From an uncultured Pseudomonadota bacterium (GTDB taxonomy: Bacteria; Desulfobacterota; Binatia; Binatales; Binataceae), in contig CAWDWL010000041.1 in NCBI GenBank assembly GCA_963805995.1, positions 12,769 through 76,768 on the forward strand: a stretch of DNA of 64,000 nucleotides. The letters are read 5' to 3'. Positions 12,040 to 55,905 of the stretch are shown here, in pieces. Numbering within the stretch: position 1 is the stretch's first letter; the number at the start of each line of letters is the position of its first letter. The notes under the pieces are model-generated. The model ran no database searches. It was not told the DNA's origin and worked only from the letters and a program-made list of their open reading frames with translations. A program made the position numbers and the translations under genes.

Positions 12040-13288
12040 ATGGCATACAAAACAATTAAGGTTCCCAGCAACGGCGAGAAGATCCGCCTCAAGTCCGATC
12101 ATACTCTGGAAGTGCCTGATCGGCCTATCCTGCCCTTTATCGAGGGCGACGGCACCGGCCGCGACATCTGGCACGCTTCCCAGTATGTGTTCGACGGCGC
12201 GGTTAAGAAGGTCTATGGCGGCAAGCGTGAAATCGCCTGGATGGAAGTTTATCGCAGGTGAGAAGGCTTTCAAGCAGTTCAACAACTGGCTGCCCGACGA
12301 GACCGTTGAGGCGTTCCGCGAGTATCTGATCGGAATCAAGGGGCCGCTCACCACGCCGGTCGGCGGCGGAATCAGTTCGCTCAACGTGGCCCTGCGCCAG
12401 ATGCTCGACCTGTATGTATGTCTGCGGCCGGTGCGCTACTTCAAGGGCGTGCCGAGTCCGGTCAAGAATCCGGAAAAGCTCGACGTGGTGATTTTCCGCG
12501 AGAACACCGAGGACATCTACGCGGGCATCGAATGGCCGGCGGAATCGCCCGAAGCCCGAAAAGTCATCAAGTTCCTGCAGGAGGAGATGGGGGTCAAAAA
12601 GATCCGCTTCCCCAACACCTCGGGGATCGGAGTCAAGCCGGTGTCGCGCGAAGGCTCCGAGCGTCTGATCCGCGCCGCGCTGGACTATGCGATCCTGCAC
12701 AAGCGCAAGAGCGTCACGATGGTGCACAAGGGCAACATCATGAAGTTCACCGAGGGCGCGTTCCGCGACTGGGGTTATGAGCTGACCAAGCGCGAATACC
12801 AGGGGCGGGCGGTCGGATGGGACGACTGCAACGGCAAGCCGCCGCCGGGACAAATCCTGGTCAAGGACAACATCGCCGACATCACCCTGCAGCAGGTCCT
12901 GACCCGGCCCGATGAATTCGACGTGGTCGCGACCATGAACCTTAATGGCGATTACCTGTCCGACGCGTTGGCCGCGCAAGTGGGCGGCATCGGCATCGCA
13001 CCGGGCGCCAACATCAACTACATCACCGGTCATGGCGTGTTCGAGGCTACCCACGGCACCGCGCCCAAGTACGCCGACCAGGACAAAGTCAACCCCGGAT
13101 CGGTGATCCTGTCGGGCGTGCTGATGCTCGAGCACATGGGATGGCAGGAAGCGGCGGACGGGATCGTGCGTGGACTCGAAAAGACCATCGCGAACAAAAC
13201 CGTGACCTACGACTTCGAGCGTTTGATGAGCGGCGCCAAGCTGCTTAAGTGCTCTGAGTTCGGCAAGGCGATCGTCGACAACATGTAA
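12040..13288 (+). pseudogene. icd: NADP-dependent isocitrate dehydrogenase, interrupted by a single-base insertion as assembled
   Basis: The N-terminus ([15 protein letters not shown]...[14 protein letters not shown]...IAWMEVY) runs into a TGA at 12259. It continues in the +1 frame as AGEKAFKQF...[22 protein letters not shown].... Removing c12253 restores EVY|AGEKA. Confidence 0.9.
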
Positions 13289-41142: not shown

Positions 41143-41492
41143 TCATACCATGACGGCCGGTATCCGTTCGAATCCCCCCGTATCAATCGAACCCCTATGG
41201 ATTAACATTTTTTACCTGCTCAATGGTCCTACCCAGTTGGAATCGGGTGTTCGGTCGGTTGCCAGAGAACATATTTTTTCCCCGATGCACAACTGGCGCG
41301 TATAAAACCGGCCATAGTGGTTAGTTTCCTGATGGCAAGTTAATTGCTGCATCAATCTTGGATACCATGCCAGCCTCAAAGAAAAGTCTTGTAAACGAAT
41401 GTGGCCCGGGGACGTTCAAAGATCAGAATCAAAGCTTAACCGCCCCGGATGGGGTGCGGTTCAGTACCAAGTCGGGTTGTGGGAGTACTCCA

Positions 41493-43604
41493 ATGAAAAA
41501 ACTGGTTTTGGCGCTCACAGCGCTGTTGTGGCTGTCGGGTGCATTGCTAACCAATGCGCCGGTTTCGGCGCAAATGAACCGCCCGCCCGGGTGGGGCGAC
41601 TACGACAGCGGTCGTCAATGGCGCGACGCCAGTTGGTGGTGGACCAACCATCCCGATTGGGTGCGCCAGCATCACCCCACCTGGTGGGGCGAATTCGATC
41701 AAAGCCGCACTTGGCGACCCGCGTCGTGGTGGTGGCAAAACAATCCCGATTGGGTCCGCCGCCATCACCCGGAATGGTGGGGTGACTGGGACCGCGACCA
41801 CGTCTGGCAGCCCGCCAACTGGTGGTATCAGCAAAATCCGAGCTGGATTTACCAGCATCATCCCGAATGGTGGGGCGCCCCGTACGAGGGACAGTGGTAT
41901 CCCGCCGCCTGGTGGGTGCAGAACTTCCCGCAGTGGGTGCAGATGTATCATCCCGAATGGTGGGGCGCGGTGAACCAGGGACAGTGGTATCCCGCGTCAT
42001 GGTGGTACGCCAATAATCCCAACTACATCGCGTCCAACCACCCGGAATGGTGGGGCGACCCGGACAATCAAGGCGTTTGGCAGCCGTCGAGCTGGTGGGC
42101 GCTGAACAATGCCGCCGCCTTGAGTAACAATCATCCGGATTGGTGGGGCGACTGGGACAGTAACCACGTCTGGCAGCCGGCGGGATATTGGTATCAGGTC
42201 GAGCCGCAATACGTCTATGCCAATCATCCGGATTGGTGGGGCGATTGGGACGACCATCATCGCTGGTACCCGGCGTCCTGGTGGTACCATAACAACCCCG
42301 GGTGGGTCGCGCAGAACCATCCATATTGGTGGGGTGACGCCGATGAGCATCACATGTGGCACAGCGACGTGTGGTGGCAGCAGCACAATCCGAACTGGGT
42401 AGCCCAGCACCACCCGAATTGGGTCGGCACTTACGATCAGCAGCATCGATGGCGCGACCTGAACTGGTGGGCGGCTAAGAACCCGGCCTACATTCAGCAG
42501 AACCATCGGAATTGGCTTCCGGCGATGCAGCAGGTGATCGCGCATCAGCAGTCGCAGCAACAGCGCATCGCGCAGCTCAGCCCGGCGATCGTGGCGGCCC
42601 GTGAGCAAGCAATCGGGCGCAACCGCGGCCTGGCCCAGGCGGCCGCGGCCCAGCGGGCGGCGCAAATGCGTATGCGCCAGCAAGCAGTCACTCTGCGCGC
42701 CCGGCAGCAGCGCCAACAACAGATGGTGCTGCGCGAACGAGCGACCCCGCAGTCGCTCCAACAGCAGCACGCCGCCGGACTGAACGCGGCGCCAGGGACC
42801 GCGACCGAACGCGCACGCCAGCAGGCAATCGAAAATGCGCAACATGCCGGCCATCTGAATCCCGAACAGCAGCGGGCCGCCCAAGCCGCCGCTATGCGCG
42901 ACAATCAGCTCAAGGCGTCGCAGAACCAGCAGCTGGAACAGCAGCGCGCTGGTCAAGCCGCGGCGGCGCGTGAGAATCAACTAAAGGCCTCTCAGTCTCA
43001 GCGCCTGGAGCAGGAGCGCGCCGCCCAAGCTGCGGCGCAGCGCGAAAATCAGCTCAAAGCGTCGCAGTCACAGCGCCTGGAACAGGAGCGGGCCGCTCAG
43101 GCTTCGGCCGCGCGTGAAAATCAGCTAAAGGCCGCCGAGTCTCAGCGCCTGGAACAGGAAGCGGGCCGCTCAAAGCTCGGCTCGGCCGCACGTGAGAATC
43201 AGCTAAAAGCCGCCGAGTCTCAACGGCTGGAACAGGAAAGGGCCGCTCAAGCTTCGGCGGCGCGTGAGAACCAGCTAAAGGCGGTCCAGTCGCAGCGGCT
43301 GGCACAGGAGCGCGCGGCCCAAGCCGCAGCTGCGCAGAGAACCGGCCAGACGCACCTGGAGCAACAGCGACTCGAGCAGCAGCGCATCCAACAGCAGCAC
43401 AAGCTGCAGCAGCAGAGCATGGAAGGAGTCCGTCGGCAACAGGCAGCGGCGATGGCGCACGCGCAGCAGCGGGCGGCAGCCAACCGTGCGACGCTCCACC
43501 GCGCCGCGACGATGCAGCGCCCGATGCCGGCTCCGGCCGCGCGTGCAGCGATGCCGGCTGAGCGCCACGTCCAGGCGACGCCGCCCAAACGGCACGTTGA
43601 ATAG
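41493..43604 (+). CDS. Secreted Trp/His-rich tandem-repeat protein with a Gln/Ala/Arg/Glu-rich repeat (coiled-coil-like) C-terminal half
   Basis: A gggag RBS precedes the ATG at 41493. Signal peptide MKKLVLALTALLWLSGALLTNAPVSA. About 10 repeats follow of HP(E/D)WWG(D)WD..H.WQPA.WW.QNP.W...., then about 7 repeats of RENQLKASQSQRLEQERAAQAAA. Confidence 0.8.
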   Translation: MKKLVLALTALLWLSGALLTNAPVSAQMNRPPGWGDYDSGRQWRDASWWWTNHPDWVRQHHPTWWGEFDQSRTWRPASWWWQNNPDWVRRHHPEWWGDWDRDHVWQPANWWYQQNPSWIYQHHPEWWGAPYEGQWYPAAWWVQNFPQWVQMYHPEWWGAVNQGQWYPASWWYANNPNYIASNHPEWWGDPDNQGVWQPSSWWALNNAAALSNNHPDWWGDWDSNHVWQPAGYWYQVEPQYVYANHPDWWGDWDDHHRWYPASWWYHNNPGWVAQNHPYWWGDADEHHMWHSDVWWQQHNPNWVAQHHPNWVGTYDQQHRWRDLNWWAAKNPAYIQQNHRNWLPAMQQVIAHQQSQQQRIAQLSPAIVAAREQAIGRNRGLAQAAAAQRAAQMRMRQQAVTLRARQQRQQQMVLRERATPQSLQQQHAAGLNAAPGTATERARQQAIENAQHAGHLNPEQQRAAQAAAMRDNQLKASQNQQLEQQRAGQAAAARENQLKASQSQRLEQERAAQAAAQRENQLKASQSQRLEQERAAQASAARENQLKAAESQRLEQEAGRSKLGSAARENQLKAAESQRLEQERAAQASAARENQLKAVQSQRLAQERAAQAAAAQRTGQTHLEQQRLEQQRIQQQHKLQQQSMEGVRRQQAAAMAHAQQRAAANRATLHRAATMQRPMPAPAARAAMPAERHVQATPPKRHVE
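41580..42525 (+). repeat. In-frame tandem coding repeat, period ~90-93 nt, about 10 units (Trp/His-rich)
   Basis: The units start PPGWGDYD, HPTWWGEFD, HPEWWGDWD, HPEWWGAPY, HPEWWGAVN, HPEWWGDPD, HPDWWGDWD, HPDWWGDWD, HPYWWGDAD and HPNWVGTYD. Confidence 0.85.
42894..43335 (+). repeat. In-frame tandem coding repeat, period 72 nt, 6-7 units
   Basis: Unit starts (cgYgaRaaYca) are at 42897, 42969, 43041, 43113, 43191 and 43263. One unit is 78 nt. Confidence 0.9.
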
Positions 43605-45551: not shown

Positions 45552-48758
<3,207 letters not shown>

Positions 48759-48764
48759 GGTAAC

Positions 48765-49955
48765 TTACGCCATCTTCCTTTCAGCGGCCAGTACGCGGTC
48801 GAGTGCCTCCGCGCCGTAACGCGGAAAGGCTTCGACCAACTGCCGAAAACGTTTGAACAAATAGCCCGCATCGTGGGGACCGGGCGAGGCTTCGGGATGG
48901 TACTGCACGGAGAAGAACGGGACGCCCTGCCCGCGCAAGCCTTCCACCGTATGGTCGTTGAGATTGAGATGAGAGATCTCGGCGCGACCGGCAACCGAAT
49001 CGGCGTTCACCGCGAAGCCATGGTTCTGCGAGGTAATCTCCACCCGTCCAGTGGTGAGGTCCTTGACCGGATGATTGGCCCCGTGATGGCCAAAGTCGAG
49101 CTTGTAGGTCTGGCCGCCGATCGCGAGGCCCAGAATCTGGTGACCCAGACAGATCCCGAACACCGGCTTCTTGCCCAGGACTCCGCGCATCGCTTCGCTG
49201 GCATAGGGCAATGCCGCCGGATCCGCCGGACCGTTGGAAAGAAACACGCCGTCCGGATCGCACGCCAGGATGTCGGCGGCGGTCGCCGTGGCGGGCAGGA
49301 CCTTTACCCGCAAGCCGTGGGAAATCAGCGAGCGCAGGATGTTGCGCTTGATGCCATAATCCAGCGCGACCACCAGCGGCGCGCCATCCAGTTGCGGGCG
49401 GCCGTAACCGCGGCCCAGTTCCCATTCGCCGGAGTCCCAGTCATAGCCTTCCCCGCAGGTCACTTCCTTGACCAGGTCGCGTCCCACCAGTCCGGGCGAG
49501 GCTTTGGCCTTCCGCACCAGGCTTTCGGGATTCAGGTCGACGCTTGAGATGAGCGCTTCCTGCGCGCCGCAGGTGCGGATATGACGGACCAGCGCCCGCG
49601 TATCGATTCCTTCAATCCCGACCACTCCCGCCTGCTGCAGGTATTGGTGCAGCGGCATCTCGGAGCGCCAGTTGGAAGGACGCGGCCAGTAATCCTTGAC
49701 GATGAAGCCTTCGACGTAGATTCGCGCCGACTCCGTGTCCTCTTCGTTAACCCCCACGTTGCCGATTTCGGGGTAAGTCATGCACACCAACTGGCCCTTG
49801 TAGGAAGGATCGGTCAGGACTTCCTGGTAGCCGGTCATTGCGGTGTTGAACACCACTTCGCCCACGGTTTCGCCAATCGCTCCGAAGGCCAGGCCGCGGA
49901 AAATCCGTCCGTCGGCCAGCGCCAGTATTGCGGGTTGCTTATTTTCGCTGTTCAT
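48765..49955 (-). CDS. carA: Carbamoyl-phosphate synthase small (glutaminase) subunit
   Basis: [13 protein letters not shown]..., GATase catalytic motif FGICLGHQ, and ...[14 protein letters not shown]. The start is taken at MNSENK (49955). Confidence 0.95.
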
Positions 49956-51363
49956 CTTTTCGCGTCGTACCGTGCCGCCGCCGAAGTCTCGGCGCATTCA
50001 AATCCTGTTGCGGCCGCGCGTCGTAAACGATCTCACCGTTCACAATCGTTAAAAGCGCCTTGCCTTTGAGCCGCCGCCGCGTGAACGGCGTGTTACGGCT
50101 GCGCGACAAAATCTCTCCCGGATCGACCTCCCATTGGAGCTGTGGATCGATCACCGTGAGGTCCGCCGGACCGCGCTCATACAGCCGCCCACCCTCAAGC
50201 TTGAGCAACCGCGCGGGATTCAGCGACATCAACTCGACCAGCCGCATCGGAGTGATGAGCGAACTGTGAACCAGGTCCATGGCCAGGCCCAGCGCGGTCT
50301 GCAAACCGATTACTCCGTTGGCCGCCCCAGTGAAGGCCCGCGCTTGCGGCGCGCTCAAGGGCCATCGATGATGGCCGGCGCCGAAGCATCCGGCCAACTC
50401 CGCAGCCGCCTTGGAGCCGGGATCATGAGGGGCATGATCGGTCGCGATCATATCGATGGTGCCGTCGGCCAGCGCCGCGCGCAAGGCGTCAACGTCTTCG
50501 CGGTCGCGCAGCGGCGGATTCATCTTGGCGTCGGTGCCGAATTCCAGCACCGATGCGCCGTCCAGGCTGAAGTGATGCGGCGTGGCCTCGCAGGTCACGA
50601 TGGCTCCGCGCTCGCGCGCGGCGATTACCAGCTCCAACGATTCGCGGGTGGAAACGTGCGCGATATGGACCTTCTTGCCGGCGCCGACGGCCAGGGTGAG
50701 ATCGCGCCGCACGCGCTCGCTCTCCGCGGTGGGCGGCACGGCCGCGACGCCGAGGGTATCCGCCGTCGCACCGGCGTTGATCGCGCCACCGCACGCGAGG
50801 TCACGGTCCTCTTCATGCAGTGAAATCGCCAGCCCCAAAATTCCCGCACGATGCATCGCATGCAGCAGCAAATCGGGATCGTCCACCGGCATGCCGTCGT
50901 CGGAAAGCATCCTGACGCCGGCCGTCGCGAGCGCCTCGTAGTTCGCCGCCTCCAGTCCTTTGAGGCCCTTGGAAACGGCGCCGACTGGAATCAACGCGGC
51001 TCCCCGTACGGCTTTTGCGCGGGCCAGCATGTAAGCGGTGACCTCGGGGCTGTCGTTGACCGGTACGGTGTTGGCCATCGCCGCCACCGCCACGAATCCG
51101 CCCGCCGCCGCCGCGCGCAAGCCGCTCTCAATCGTCTCCTTGTGCGGATGACCGGGATCGCGCAGATGGGTGTGGACATCGATCAGTCCCGGCACTACCC
51201 AGCATTTGTCGACCGCGATTACCCGTGCTCCCGAGGGCGGCTTGATGACTCCCGGCGGTTCAATCGCCGCGATGCGACCGCCGCTGATTTCGATATCGTA
51301 CGGTCCATGCCGCCCCGACGCCGGGTCGATCAGAGTGCCGCCCATTACGAACCGGCTCTTCAT
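49939..51363 (-). CDS. pyrC: Dihydroorotase
   Basis: [14 protein letters not shown] metal-binding motif and ...ATDHAPH.... The start overlaps the stop of the upstream pyrB fusion (ATGA). The 3' end overlaps the carA start by 17 nt. Confidence 0.9.
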
Positions 51364-53307
51364 GCGCTCTCCCCGGCCTCTTTGAGCGATTCCACCATCG
51401 AGTAAACCATGACCCGATCCGCGGGTCTGGCGCCGCCCCCCTCCACCGGATCTCCCAGGCGTACCTGGACGCGCTCGTTGCGCGCGGTGGGGACGTTCTT
51501 GCCCACGTAGTTGGGCCGAATCGGGACGGCGCGATGACCGCGGTCAACCAGGACCGCCAGCCGCACTCCGGCCGGGCGTCCCAGCTTCCACAGCGTGGTC
51601 ATCGCGCGCTGCACCGTCCATCCGCTGTTGAGCACGTCATCAGTCAGTACGATGATGCGGTCCTCGACCTCGAAGCTCTGGGCGCCGCCCAATGGCTGCA
51701 AAGCGTCAAAGCCGCGGAAGACATCGAGCGCCGCGCAGGGAATCCGCACCTGGGTCTGGCGCTCGATAAGCTCGCACAGACGCAGCGCCAGCAGCGCGCC
51801 ATGGCTCACGATTCCAACCACGCTGACGCGCGCCAAATCGGGCAGGTCGCGGATGATATGCGCCGCAATTGCTTCGACCGCGTGGGCGATCTCTTCCGCA
51901 TTCATGATCTCGCGCTGTGGACCGCGCCGATAAGGCTCGTAGCCCGCTTCTTCAGCCTGCTTGACGGTTTCGAAGACCGCCATCGTGCCGTCTTCGAGCC
52001 ATTGCCTGACATAGCCCAGCAAGCTTTCGTCGAACTTGTAATAGCGGCGGCTGCGTGAATGTCCGACGTACTGCACCTTGAGTTCGCGTTCGCAGAATTC
52101 ACAGCGCAGGCATAGCTCGGCGCGGCTGAAGGCGGGCGCCATCCGGAAGCGCGGGCGCAGGTAGCGGCTTTCGTGGCGGCTGATACAGCTCGGATTGGAA
52201 CACGTTGGCGCGTTTTCAGCCTTGAAGGTAAGAGGTTTTGGACCGCCGGCCTTGATCCGGGCGCCGCCGGCGTTTTCCAGCATCCATCCGATCAGCGCCA
52301 TCCGCACCGGCACCCCTGCGGCGGCCTGTTCGAAGTAAACCGCGCGCGGGTCGGAGTCGAGTTCATAAGACAGCTCATCGGTGCGGGGCAGCGGATGCAT
52401 TACCACCGCTTCCTGGGTGCGGCTGGTCTTGAGCGCGCGCGCATCGAAGCGCACGTAGTCGGACTGGTCGCGCTCCTGTTCGGAGCGGCGCTCACGCTGA
52501 AACCGGGTGACGTAAAATGCGTCCAGAGCGCCCGGTCCCGGCGACGCGGGCGCCGGATTTATGACCGGCATATCGCCGGTGAACAGCGCCATCTGATGGG
52601 GCGCGCTGGGGGTCAGATACATCGCGTCCAGGCCGCCGGCCAGGGTTTTGAGTTCGCTGATGCTGACCGTGGAGAAACTGTAATTGCGCTCGGCGGCCAA
52701 CCGCGCCAACACGTAATCGGGAACCCCCATCCCGCGGTTTGGCACCGCGACCACGTTGGCGCCGAAGCGCGCCAAGCGCGTAAATCAGCGAATGGACCGT
52801 GCGGCCAAACTTGAGGTCGCCGCAGATTGCCACCGTCAGTCCGCGCAGATGGCCCTTTTTCTTGCGCAGGATGTAGAGATCGCACAGTGTCTGCGTGGGA
52901 TGCTCACGGCTGCCGTCGCCGGCGTTGATCACCGTACACCGAGCATAATCCGCCGCGACCTGCGCGGCGCCATCAAACGGATGGCGGATCACAATCAGAT
53001 CGGCATATCCGCTCACCACCCGGACGGTGTCGGCCAGGGTCTCGCCTTTGGCCGCGGAACTGGCGTCCATCGACGCGGAGCTGATCACCGAGCCCCCGAG
53101 GCGAAGGGCCGCCGATTCAAAGCTTAGCCGGGTGCGGGTGGACGGCTCGTAAAACAACGTCGCCATGATCAAGCCATCGGCGACGTGCAGGCGCTCGCCG
53201 GTTTCCAGGTGCGCGGCAAATTCGTCGGCCAGAACGAAGATCCGCTCGATTTCGCTGACCGACAGATCGTCGATCGAGATCACGTCATTTTTTGGCAGGC
53301 GCTGCAT
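51360..53307 (-). pseudogene. pyrB: Aspartate carbamoyltransferase catalytic chain fused in-frame to a PyrI-type zinc domain and a PyrR-like PRTase domain. One single-base insertion lies in the catalytic part as assembled.
   Basis: ORF 52492..53307 has [13 protein letters not shown] and HPTQ. It continues after removal of one base near 52772 (SLIYAL|ARFGANVV) into ORF 51360..52775, which contains HPLPR. Then come CSNPSCISRHE...LRCEFCERE (~52071..52208) and IIVLTDDVLNSGWTVQRA...LVDRGHRAVPIRPNYVGKNVPT (~51456..51914). Confidence 0.85.
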
Positions 53308-53344
53308 GGTCTCGACGTCGCCTTTGGCGCACCCAAGGCGCCGG

Positions 53345-53887
53345 TTACTTCGCCCCTCCAGTCAGCACCGCGTCCGCCCCGTCGGTTTCGCTAAGCCGCA
53401 CGAACACCCGCTGGCCATGCGGCGCGGCGACATTCTTGCCTACGAAATCCGCCTTGATGGGCAGCTCGCGCTCGCCGCGGTCAACCAGCACGGCAAGTTG
53501 AATCGACTCCGGCCGTCCGAGATCGGCGATCGCGTCAAGCGCCGCGCGCACGGTGCGCCCGGTGTAAAGCACGTCATCCACCAGCACCACCCGCTTGTCC
53601 TCCAGCGGGAACGGGATCTCGCGCGCCAGCAGGCGCGGATCGCCCGCGCCCGACTTGTTGTCGTCACGGTAGAGCGAGATGTCGAGGGTCCCAATTGGAA
53701 CCTCGGCGCCGGTGATCTCCGCCAGCGCGGCCCGCAGACGCATGGCGAGATTGGCGCCGCGCCGCACGATTCCGATCAGCGCCAGATCCGCGGGCTGGGG
53801 GTTGTGCTCGACAATTTCGTGGGCCAGGCGCTTGACGCAGCGCGCGATCGTGGCGCCGTCCATCACCGTCTGATAACCGGTGCTCAT
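53345..53887 (-). CDS. pyrR: Bifunctional pyrimidine operon regulator/uracil phosphoribosyltransferase PyrR
   Basis: [29 protein letters not shown] and [23 protein letters not shown] motifs. Confidence 0.9.
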
Positions 53888-53898
53888 CGGCGCCGGCG

Positions 53899-53932
53899 CA
53901 AAAAAAGTCCCGGTCTGCGGACGCAGCCGGGG
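53899..53932 (-). terminator. Leader intrinsic terminator (attenuator) directly upstream of pyrR
   Basis: The minus strand reads ccccggcugc-gucc-gcagaccggg followed by acuuuuuuug, ending 12 nt before the pyrR ATG. Confidence 0.6.
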
Positions 53933-53961
53933 AATGGAAGTTTGCTAATCACTGTCACCTA

Positions 53962-53995
53962 CCCTTTTCGTCCTCTCAGGGACGAATTTAAAAGG
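53962..53995 (-). promoter_or_regulatory. Putative PyrR-binding hairpin (anti-antiterminator)
   Basis: The minus strand reads ccuuuu-aaa-uucgucc-CUGAGA-ggacgaa-aaggg. The apical UCCCUGAGAGGA resembles the PyrR binding-loop consensus (A)RUCCAGAGAGGYU. Confidence 0.55.
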
Positions 53996-54189
53996 CGTTG
54001 AGCCGGTCTTATGTCCGTGTCGCGGCGACCGGCGTTCTCTCAAGGCTAACCGCTGCCTTATCCGCCAGTCAAGTCAGGCCTGCCGCTGGCGGCGTTTGGG
54101 TATCAACACCGAAACCGTTTTGGGTTTGCGCCAACCGCTTGCTAAAGGTCTCAAGGTCCACTCTTGAGGGGGGTTCACCGACTACGGAC

Positions 54190-54876
54190 ATGCAGAATTT
54201 TATGCTACGGGCGCTTTCGCGGCGTCGGCATTTGGACCCAACCCGGCGGCGCACCCTTGCTCGCCTGCTTCTTCCAGTGTTGTTCGTAGGCGCCGGATTG
54301 CATTCCTGGAAGACCCGGTCGTGGGCTTTCGAGGCTACCCCCACAACCACGTCGTGGCAGGTTTATTTCTCGCCGGACGGAGGATGCACGCAAGCGATCG
54401 TCAATGCGATCGGCGCCGCGCATCAGCAGATGATGGTGCAGGCGTATGAGATGACCTCGCCGCCGATCAAAAACGCCTTGGTGGCTGCCCAACGCCGGGG
54501 CGTCAGGATACAGGCGATTTTCGATCCCTCCGCGCTGAACGAATCCAATACGATGGTCGGCGAGCTAAGCGCCGGCGGCATTTCCGTCTTCATCGACAGC
54601 GTGCACCGCCCGGGCCTGGCACACAACAAGGTGATGATCATCGACGGGGCCATGGTGATTACCGGCAGCTTCAATTTCACCAAGGCGGCGGAGTTCCGCA
54701 ACGCGGAGAACCTGTTGATCATAAGGGACCCGGCGCTGGCGGCAGCGTACGCGAGAAATTTCGCCAACCATCTATCGCATTCGTCGCCGCTGGGCTCCGC
54801 CGACATCCCTGCGCCAAAAGCCACGCATTACCACCACTACTACTATCGGCATTATCATCGGCATAGTTACTGGTGA
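54190..54876 (+). CDS. Phospholipase D-family (Nuc-like, single HKD) protein with an N-terminal anchor and a His/Tyr-rich tail
   Basis: HKD motif LAHNKVMIIDGAMVITGSFNFT. N-terminal hydrophobic segment LARLLLPVLFVGAGL. The C-terminus reads ATHYHHYYYRHYHRHSYW. Confidence 0.8.
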   Translation: MQNFMLRALSRRRHLDPTRRRTLARLLLPVLFVGAGLHSWKTRSWAFEATPTTTSWQVYFSPDGGCTQAIVNAIGAAHQQMMVQAYEMTSPPIKNALVAAQRRGVRIQAIFDPSALNESNTMVGELSAGGISVFIDSVHRPGLAHNKVMIIDGAMVITGSFNFTKAAEFRNAENLLIIRDPALAAAYARNFANHLSHSSPLGSADIPAPKATHYHHYYYRHYHRHSYW

Positions 54877-55005
54877 GATCTTTGTATTTCGCGGGCCCTG
54901 CGGTCTGTCCCACTGATTCAGACACCCCCACCCTGGGTCAGCCTGAGGCTTCAGCTTCGCAAACAGCGTCACAACAGCATGTAAAAAGCGAGATGAGCAC
55001 AGCGA

Positions 55006-55176
55006 AAATGTGGGAACTCCAGTGACAGCCTGGAAGGCTGTCACTGGTGGGCAGGGACGCCCGCCCCACTGAAAACTGTCCGAGCCAGTGGGGCGGGCGT
55101 CCCTGCCTGCCGCTTCGCCGCAGGAATGTAGAAACTCCAGTCACAGGCTGGAAGCCTGTGACTGGAGTTTCTACAT
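55006..55176. repeat. Cluster of REP-like palindromes
   Basis: ccagtgacagcc-tggaa-ggctgtcactgg (55018-55046). A perfect 22-bp inverted repeat, ggcagggacgcccgccccactg/cagtggggcgggcgtccctgcc (55049-55106, 14-nt loop). A perfect 25-bp-stem hairpin, aatgtagaaactccagtcacaggct-gga-agcctgtgactggagtttctacatt (55124-55176). Confidence 0.85.
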
Positions 55177-55608
55177 TGTCGCTGTAATTTTCTCCCCCGG
55201 ACCGGGGGAGATGGGCCCCGCCGCGGCGCCCAGAGAGGGTCCTTTGTCAGCGCGTCCGCCAAGGCGCGCGATTAAGGAAACCGGCAGCGCTGCATAAATC
55301 GCTTCGAGCACATCTTCGATCTCGGTGTTCACTGCTGCATTCCAAAGTCGCATCGCTCGATAACCCTGCTCGGTGAGACAACCCGTTCTCAAGGGATCCG
55401 TGCACTCTTGCTCCGGTTCGGCATGTTGATTGCCGTCGAGTTCGATAATCCGGTGGCGCGTGACGCAGCAGAAATCTGCGAAGTACGGACCAATGTGGTA
55501 CCGGCGGCTGAATTTGAATCCCGCAAAGCGCCTGGCTCTGAGGTGCGCCCACAACTTCCGCTCCTCATCCGCACACTCAGCCCGAAGGCGCCGGCCTTGA
55601 TCGCGCAA
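55171..55608 (-). CDS. DUF559 (Vsr-like endonuclease fold) domain protein
   Basis: ERKLWAHLRARRFAGFKFSRRYHIGPYFADFCC...IIELDGNQH...GYRAMRLWN. The 3' ~35 codons run into the palindrome cluster and may not be native. Confidence 0.7.
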   Translation of the reverse strand: MRDQGRRLRAECADEERKLWAHLRARRFAGFKFSRRYHIGPYFADFCCVTRHRIIELDGNQHAEPEQECTDPLRTGCLTEQGYRAMRLWNAAVNTEIEDVLEAIYAALPVSLIARLGGRADKGPSLGAAAGPISPGPGEKITATM

Positions 55609-55657
55609 AGGTTCGTCACCGGAACCTCATAATCGCGCGCCTGAAGCAGGCGCCCTC

Positions 55658-55676
55658 TCACAGGCTGGAAGCCTAT
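55658..55676. repeat. REP-like hairpin (ACAGGC family)
   Basis: cacaggc-tggaa-gcctatg. Confidence 0.5.
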
Positions 55677-55905
55677 GCCACAAAGTCACCTCAATCATTT
55701 AGAAAGGAGGGCTCTGGTCCTGCTTTTTTTCCGTGGCACAGTGGCGAAGCCATTCCAGCGTGTGATTTTTTTCTTCCAAAGGTCTCGGAAAAGAGGATGA
55801 CAGGCTACAAAAACCTGTCCCACCATCAAAAAATATCCTTTTTTCCACCACCATTTCCGCGGACCGCGCAGCCACGGTTCGGTCCGAATTTGTAGAAGCT
55901 TGTGG

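Follow-up and report, generated by a model that had tools for sequence, protein, structure and literature searches.

A single-chain aspartate transcarbamoylase of Candidatus Binataceae joined to a PyrI-type zinc domain and a PyrR-derived domain

Introduction

In class B aspartate transcarbamoylase (ATCase), the PyrB6–PyrI6 enzyme of Escherichia coli and archaea, two catalytic trimers and three regulatory dimers form a dodecamer that is inhibited by CTP and UTP and activated by ATP. A review from 2018 on enzymes of carbamoyl phosphate recognises only three bacterial ATCase classes: A, which occurs with dihydroorotase (DHOase), B, which has fused or unfused regulatory chains, and C, which consists of trimers (PMC6022934). 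A fused PyrB–PyrI ATCase is recorded for Thermotoga maritima (Chen et al. 1998, as cited in PMC6022934). PyrR, the attenuator and uracil phosphoribosyltransferase (UPRTase) of Bacillus, Mycobacterium and Thermus, has UMP/UTP, phosphoribosyl pyrophosphate (PRPP) and guanine nucleotides as ligands (PMC7430163). Here we describe a gene in a 64,000-nucleotide stretch of DNA, referred to as the window, which covers positions 12,769 to 76,768 of contig CAWDWL010000041.1 (assembly GCA_963805995.1). The gene, located on the minus strand at 51360..53307, is pyrB of a Candidatus Binataceae bacterium and encodes a single-chain ATCase of the ATC II or class-B type, of the archaeal/enterobacterial lineage. 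The catalytic chain is followed in the same polypeptide by a PyrI_C-type zinc domain, a conserved connector, and a domain derived from PyrR.

Judged from its sequence, the protein is most like a class B ATCase, yet it lacks one feature that defines this class, the allosteric domain. Its catalytic chain is of the same lineage, and its zinc domain has the four cysteines of PyrI. In contrast to the class B enzyme, it has no CTP/ATP-binding domain of PyrI, its zinc domain extends the catalytic chain in cis at the C-terminus, and its sensor-like domain is C-terminal to the zinc domain, the reverse of the PyrI order. It also has an extra connector and an insertion of ~38 aa in the aspartate domain. 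With the Thermotoga enzyme it shares the presence of catalytic and regulatory parts in one polypeptide, the regulatory part being C-terminal. The Thermotoga enzyme, however, carries the whole of PyrI, whereas the sensor-like fold here is that of a type-I phosphoribosyltransferase (PRTase). With the corresponding 525-aa bifunctional model (NF009916), whose cut-off is 800 bits, the protein scored 81.3 bits and aligned over residues 12-204 only.

Results

The preliminary description of this DNA had read the gene as an ATCase catalytic chain fused to only the zinc domain of PyrI and to a degenerate PyrR-like domain. Profile hidden Markov models (HMMs) and hundreds of uninterrupted homologues bore out this architecture, and the features that had been described were all found in the sequence at the coordinates given for them. 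Removal of one base at 52774/5 gave a conceptual product of 648 aa, and not of 649 aa as had been claimed. This product matched the OTCace_N, OTCace, PyrI_C, Pribosyltran, and ATCase models of Pfam and NCBIfam above their cut-offs.

To survey the fusion, one genome per GTDB species was scanned with an alignment of the zinc domain and connector, and the best 80 loci were analysed. At least 220 species-level GTDB genomes encode a relative, and the best 80 of the 220 are almost all metagenome-assembled genomes (MAGs) of Candidatus Binataceae. One uninterrupted open reading frame (ORF) of 642-664 aa, whose ATG or GTG start codon aligns with residue 1, was present in 66 of the 80 loci. Frame breaks were found in seven, all of them 'MFD' MAGs that are probably long-read assemblies, each at a position of its own and none at 52774/5. 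When the protein database was searched with residues 1-464, the best 120 matches all carried PF02729, PF00185, and PF02748; most of these were 642-664 aa long and had PF00156 too, and a few of 537-614 aa lacked it. One intact protein, P0121, is 97 % identical to that of the window. The order pyrR–fusion–pyrC–carA was kept in every locus that reached far enough. The fusion is genuine and not an artefact.

Mean pairwise identity was 0.80-0.86 in the catalytic domains, 0.79 in the connector, 0.68 in the PyrR-like domain, 0.65 in the zinc domain, and 0.33 in the tether that precedes the zinc domain. These alignments show that purifying selection acts on the zinc domain, connector, and PyrR-like domain throughout the family.

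A search with the C-terminal 302 aa returned only matches of 167-516 aa, which hinted at a conserved split or frameshift. This was rejected, since the matches are fragments: some are cut off at contig ends, some were called from an internal start, and others are ENA proteins with visible frameshifts. The start residue common to P0037 and P0040 was likewise not taken as biology; in P0037 it results from a stretch of N in scaffold L081. Matches of 124-171 aa that looked like stand-alone zinc-domain proteins were also fragments, starting within the ATCase C-terminal helix or the HPLPR motif.

The catalytic chain occupies residues 1-345 (52272..53307, minus strand). It scored 282.4 bits with TIGR00670 (cut-off 236.95) and 274.9 bits with NF002032 (cut-off 263), and the repaired protein matched PF02729 and PF00185 with E-values of 6e-45 and 2.5e-18, respectively. 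The catalytic residues of E. coli ATCase are S52-T53-R54-T55, S80, K84, R105, H134, Q137, R167, R229, Q231, and L267. In the repaired protein we read the motifs EPSTRTR, SSAAKGE (with the K84 equivalent), RHP, HPTQ, GRTVHS, TRFQRER, and HPLPR, with the catalytic residues intact. The nearest solved ATCases (E ~1e-72, Foldseek template-modelling (TM) score 0.86) are PyrI-regulated archaeal enzymes, from P. abyssi (1ML4) and M. jannaschii (2RGW). Plant and E. coli ATCases come next, and the B. subtilis (unregulated) and Aquifex (DHOase-associated) types are far more distant. Foldseek with the whole AlphaFold2 (AF2) model returned ATCases only.

The aspartate domain contains a family-specific insertion region at residues 209-260 (52527..52682, minus strand), in which 27 of 52 columns are at least 90 % conserved. 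These residues stand for ~14 residues of PyrB, an insertion of ~38 residues relative to the M. jannaschii protein. The insertion resembles a duplicated strand, directly precedes the TRxQxER segment, which runs on into the 240s loop, and was found in every clade having the zinc fusion. The AF2 confidence (predicted local distance difference test, pLDDT) in this region is below 50.

The ~20-aa linker noted after the ATCase corresponds to a variable 21-aa tether, residues 346-366 (52209..52271, minus strand), in which none of the 21 columns is conserved. The zinc domain follows at residues 367-412 (52071..52208, minus strand). Its pattern C-x4-C-x27-C-x2-C had been given correctly; the four cysteines are invariant in the family alignment, and the additional cysteine of 'ELCLRC' is not conserved across the family. 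PyrI_C matched with 30.8 bits (gathering cut-off 23.4, E 2.6e-7). When the domain was aligned with residues 99-146 of E. coli PyrI, the ligands C109, C114, C138, and C141 were all in register; identical residues include N111, I115, S116, E119, E142, and E144, and K143 is replaced by R. As for the N-terminal allosteric domain of PyrI, its reported absence was upheld. No Pfam match to it was found, the TIGR00240 match (19.9 bits, cut-off 148) was confined to positions 101-144 of the 150 in the profile, and a tblastn search of the 64-kb window and the 80 loci with E. coli PyrI gave no match N-terminal to residue ~90.

What had been described as a ~55-aa linker after the zinc domain is instead a 52-aa α/β connector, residues 413-464 (51915..52070, minus strand), conserved like the catalytic domains. 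Its consensus is YVGH..RRYY.FDE.L.GYVRQW...G.LAVFE.VKQAEE.GYEPY.RGPQ, and AF2 confidently predicted a β-β-α-β-α fold (pLDDT ~90). The FxSxxxAxxAGYxP element of the connector resembles the '(V/F)F.S...A...GY.P' βα element of the Ada N-terminal zinc domain (Ada_Zn_binding, PF02805), to which three proteins gave weak matches at profile positions ~40-61 of 65 (E 0.0034, 0.015, and 0.22; 12-17.8 bits against a cut-off of 23). The connector, however, lacks the Ada cysteines, the similarity is confined to the final third of the Ada domain, and all the matches are sub-threshold. Foldseek with a model of the zinc domain and connector found no significant structural neighbour, the match to 1WPK being weak (TM 0.28).

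The PyrR-derived domain, of type-I PRTase fold, comprises residues 465-620 (51447..51914, minus strand) and was modelled with pLDDT 80-95. In the repaired protein it matched Pribosyltran (PF00156) with 41.9 bits against a cut-off of 26.3, and its E-value was 2e-37 with the NCBIfam PyrR models and 2.5e-7 with hypoxanthine-guanine phosphoribosyltransferase. The cut-offs for PyrR equivalogs were missed, with 128.0 bits against 138 (NF003549) and 128.8 against 230 (NF003547), whereas the canonical PyrR encoded upstream scored 214.7. PyrR structures (4P81, 1W30, 1NON, and 1A3C) matched over ~155 residues with E-values of 6e-29 to 3e-25. The collinearity with the upstream PyrR that had been pointed out was evident, at 39 % identity when aligned, and the motif changes LDISLYRDD to LDVFRGFD and DDVLYTGRT to DDVLNSGWT were correct in the alignments.

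A comparison was made of 67 fused domains, 75 canonical Binataceae PyrRs from the neighbouring genes, and 28 other PyrRs. In the N-terminal helix, the canonical PyrRs keep R...RiaHEI, whereas the fused consensus is A....A.Q with acidic residues nearby. The basic residues of this helix, R..R.aHE, are said to have been identified by Savacool and Switzer in 2002 as the RNA-binding surface of PyrR. The YRDD flexible loop is lost in the fused domains, the region being ~11 residues shorter, and the phosphate loop DDVLYTGRT has become DDVINSGWT. A C-terminal tail (DRV..YSMVE.LKE), which with the stop codon occupies 51360..51446 (minus strand), has been gained. The fused domains keep both acidic residues, the phosphate-loop G and T, and the DRGHR..PIR..Y.GKN segment. 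D556, D557, G562, T564, and D588-R592 are invariant across fused domains and canonical PyrRs in one alignment, and 66 of the 156 columns of the domain are at least 90 % conserved. This pattern of lost and kept residues argues against RNA binding and UPRTase catalysis, and would be compatible with a ribose-5'-phosphate ligand.

A recent duplication of the neighbouring pyrR gene is an unlikely source of the domain, as identity is 36-42 % and the fused domains cluster together in a crude neighbour-joining tree. Most fused PRTase domains stand apart from the canonical PyrRs in this tree, which carries no support values. This suggests that the fusion is old and that the pyrR next door was not captured time after time.

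The distribution of the architecture was also examined. The preliminary description had called the tri-domain arrangement unfamiliar. In the literature, no paper on an ATCase–PyrI_C–PRTase protein was found. The arrangement is not rare, with a relative in at least 220 species-level genomes. An exhaustive profile search of 1.84 billion representative proteins gave 95 clusters only. Full tri-domain proteins beyond Binataceae occur in other deep clades, such as P0244 (Candidatus Acidoferrales), P0258, and P0267, the last two of which retain FRDD/YRDD and TGRT. A short form of 475-490 aa was found in SAR202, Dehalococcoidia, and Anaerolineales. Exemplified by P0295, P0301, and P0303, it shares with the fusion the ATCase with its YxTPxxPxQxxLF insertion, PyrI_C, and the connector, which ends in FFxSxxEAxxAG(F/Y)xP, but the protein stops after the connector and has no PRTase domain. 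Database names are generic, 'phosphoribosyltransferase family protein' for the fusion and 'hypothetical protein' (NCBI) for the Chloroflexota form. Short-form Chloroflexota ATCases with the Ada-like tail were seen at L087 5001-6467, a SAR202 marine contig, and in P0295, P0301, P0303, and P0293. No pyrR was found upstream of the short-form gene in L087, the one locus examined.

The window copy of the gene is interrupted by a frame break at 52774..52775 (minus strand), where it has TT against a single T in relatives (HSLIYAL/ARFGANVV). The DNA reads TAC GCG CTT GGC, against TAT GCG CTG GCG in the 93 %-identical contig L083. The gene is thereby split into ORFs of 271 codons (52492..53307, minus strand), with OTCace_N (Pfam, E 6e-45), and of 471 codons (51360..52775, minus strand), with OTCace (E 7e-11), PyrI_C at residues 191-233, and Pribosyltran at residues 288-422 (41.3 bits against 26.3). 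Both fusion junctions lie inside the single 471-codon ORF and are independent of the indel, as had been argued before. The extra T is the sole uncompensated coding indel relative to L083 across 8.7 kb of the pyr operon. It is also present in ENA contig L084 (99 % identical DNA), and is not in L083 or P0121. L084 (contig_75321), compared with 51300..53950 of the window, has nine further single-base insertions in 2.65 kb, with pyrR and carA fragmented. Partial proteins in the protein database, P0001 among them, derive from this contig. Because it is evidently unpolished and probably an assembly of the same data or population, L084 is not independent evidence for the extra T. A programmed frameshift at 52774 was rejected, since 66 of 80 relatives are in frame there. 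The insertion stems either from an error in the long-read assembly that was left uncorrected or from an inactivation that happened very recently, and in both cases it is unrelated to the fusion.

The gene lies in a pyr operon whose order on the minus strand of the window is pyrR, the pyrB fusion, pyrC, carA, and carB. The canonical pyrR (180 aa, 53345..53887) is directly upstream of the fusion, and its 214.7 bits with NF003549 exceed the cut-off of 138. The TGA stop of the fusion and the ATG of pyrC overlap as ATGA, and pyrC (dihydroorotase; 474-aa ORF, 49939..51363) is translationally coupled to the fusion. It is followed by carA (48765..49997) and carB (45552..48758). The pyrC ORF overlaps carA by 59 nt (49939..49997) and is ~22 aa longer than its counterpart in L083 (452 aa), and a compensated indel pair is present at 49634/49636 within carA. 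The places where pyrC really ends and carA really begins may not be those given by the mechanical ORF calls.

On the 5' side of pyrR, at 53900..53998 (minus strand), we found a sub-threshold match to the PyrR-binding RNA leader (RF00515, 39.3 bits against a gathering score of 54). At the gathering threshold Rfam gave no match in the window, and the leader was found in permissive scans only. Syntenic sites in two other genomes gave 46.4 bits (L002 4219-4317) and 40.7 bits (L035 4174-4270). The match spans the full-length model and adjoins the 5' side of canonical pyrR in all three Binataceae genomes. The leader is probably a divergent PyrR attenuator missed by the Rfam threshold.

Other features of the window were recorded. 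Divergent from the pyr operon, at 53998..54876 (plus strand), is a gene for a PLD-like protein (PLDc_2, E 5.7e-25) with an unusual His/Tyr-rich C-terminal tail (HYHHYYYRHYHRHSYW). A DUF559 gene (ORF 55171..55608, minus strand, E 4.6e-33) lies in the region 54990..55677 among perfect hairpins, with arms of 25 nt at 55125-55177 and of 22 nt at 55050-55107, and with palindrome copies at 55007-55047 and 55658-55677. About 750 bp of this region has no counterpart in contig L083, which is 92 % identical here, and this suggests a small inserted element. In a 748-aa ORF without a Pfam match (41358..43604, plus strand), some eleven Trp-rich repeats (HP[ED]WWG..D....W.PA.WW..NP.WV) precede repeats rich in Gln and Ala (AAQAAAARENQLKASQSQRLEQER), and this ORF explains the AT-skew outlier (0.23) at 42-44 kb.

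Discussion

The fused domain is most likely a cis-tethered sensor of nucleotides or PRPP, or an oligomerisation module, that stands in place of the CTP/ATP domain. The best explanation of the protein, which we hold to be on balance the probable one, would be that the PyrR-derived domain replaces the CTP/ATP domain and gives feedback control of ATCase at the level of the enzyme. The zinc domain would dock on the catalytic chain as in class B ATCase, and the PRTase-fold domain would take the place of the CTP/ATP domain and bind a 5'-phosphoribosyl ligand, which could be any of the PyrR ligands UMP/UTP, PRPP, or a guanine nucleotide. Dimerisation of the PyrR kind would probably bridge two catalytic trimers. 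The signal would then pass via the connector and the insertion beside the 240s-loop segment and bring about the feedback control, with free PyrR controlling the operon at the RNA level. A uridine-nucleotide/PRPP sensor tethered through the zinc domain is plausible, and fits the residues that were kept and lost.

Several observations weigh against enzyme-level control by the PyrR-derived domain. The change of TGRT to SGWT, in which Arg becomes Trp, is near-invariant (at least 90 %) in the aligned Binataceae sequences, and the pyrophosphate (PPi) loop of the fused domain shows R/H variation; nucleotide binding could therefore be altered or lost. The order of zinc domain and then sensor reverses that of PyrI, so the geometry cannot simply copy that of E. 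coli ATCase. The Chloroflexota relatives have ATCase, zinc domain, and connector with no PRTase domain at all, and the zinc/connector part would therefore have a role independent of a sensor. In the AF2 model, the pLDDT of the zinc domain is only 60-70, and Foldseek with the model of zinc domain and connector did not recover PyrI significantly, the best PyrI match having an E-value of 1.8. Finally, the window copy is frameshifted, and the L084 record has the identical insertion.

The main rival is a purely architectural role, in which zinc domain, connector, and PRTase fold form a structural or oligomerisation scaffold that senses no effector, the PRTase fold having been kept for its dimer interface. 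The retention of zinc domain and connector in the SAR202 and other Chloroflexota ATCases without a PRTase domain, and the degeneration of the catalytic loop and of part of the PRPP loop in the fused domain, would agree with a scaffold. We nevertheless consider it unlikely, since the DD..G.T loop and DRGHR are invariant in all the fused clades and in canonical PyrRs, which is not expected of a pure scaffold, and since conservation extends over 66 of the 156 columns of the domain. We give residual UPRTase activity and binding of RNA a lower probability still. PyrR proteins have UPRTase activity (PMC7430163), and in its PRPP motif the fused domain keeps both acidic residues and the G-T, while P0258 and P0267 still have FRDD/YRDD and TGRT. 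With the YRDD loop deleted or replaced in Binataceae, TGRT turned into SGWT, and the PyrR equivalog scores below their cut-offs (128 bits against 138-230), a bifunctional enzyme of de novo synthesis and salvage is nonetheless very improbable. The least probable of these readings, to which we give hardly any credence, is that the fused domain binds pyr mRNA and makes the enzyme itself a regulator of attenuation or translation. It could draw on the homology to PyrR, the PyrR-type RNA motif in the operon leader, and the conserved C-terminal RGHR..PIR..Y.GKN segment, which is part of the basic surface of PyrR. Against it, the fused domain has A....A.Q, close to acidic residues, where the N-terminal helix of PyrR has its conserved basic and His residues R..R.aHE, and in all Binataceae loci that extend sufficiently far upstream, the gene directly before the fusion encodes a canonical PyrR that retains them.

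A different kind of alternative concerns the window copy alone, which might be a real pseudogene, with a genuine T insertion and no functional fusion protein made in this genome. The second record with the insertion, L084, speaks for it, as does the site itself, which is TT against T with no long homopolymer and sits in a GCGCTT..GCGCTT near-repeat. We regard a pseudogene as possible and on the whole doubtful. L084 with its nine more single-base insertions is not independent, and the pyr operon is otherwise intact, with this one uncompensated coding indel in 8.7 kb. Isolated breaks occur elsewhere in other 'MFD' MAGs of the family, and both fragments of the window gene are otherwise free of stops and 97 % identical to the intact P0121.

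Returning to the PyrR-derived domain as a regulator of the enzyme, we tentatively put forward a more detailed scheme, held with less confidence than feedback control as such. To classes A, B, and C the family may add a further, fourth way of regulating ATCase, in which the PyrR-derived domain would dimerise, bridge trimers, read UMP/UTP against PRPP or guanine nucleotides, and signal via the zinc domain, connector, and insertion. The Chloroflexota form would be a precursor without the sensor. Compared with PyrR itself, the fused version shares ~155 residues of homology, including DDV..G.T and the DRGHR..PIR..Y.GKN segment, and differs in being a domain and not a free protein.

ATCase is the textbook model of allosteric regulation, and here a natural enzyme appears to keep the zinc 'adaptor' of PyrI and to swap the effector domain for a fold taken from the pathway's own RNA regulator. 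If this is true, allosteric sensors would be exchangeable as modules on a conserved docking domain, and the labour of regulation would be divided between two PyrR paralogues, one acting on RNA and one fused to the enzyme. The protein would also make it possible to study, with one gene and one polypeptide, how the T/R transition is coupled to a new effector specificity. Members of the family abound in soil Binataceae and in Acidoferrales, with the shorter form in marine SAR202, and generic annotations hide what is a widespread type of enzyme.

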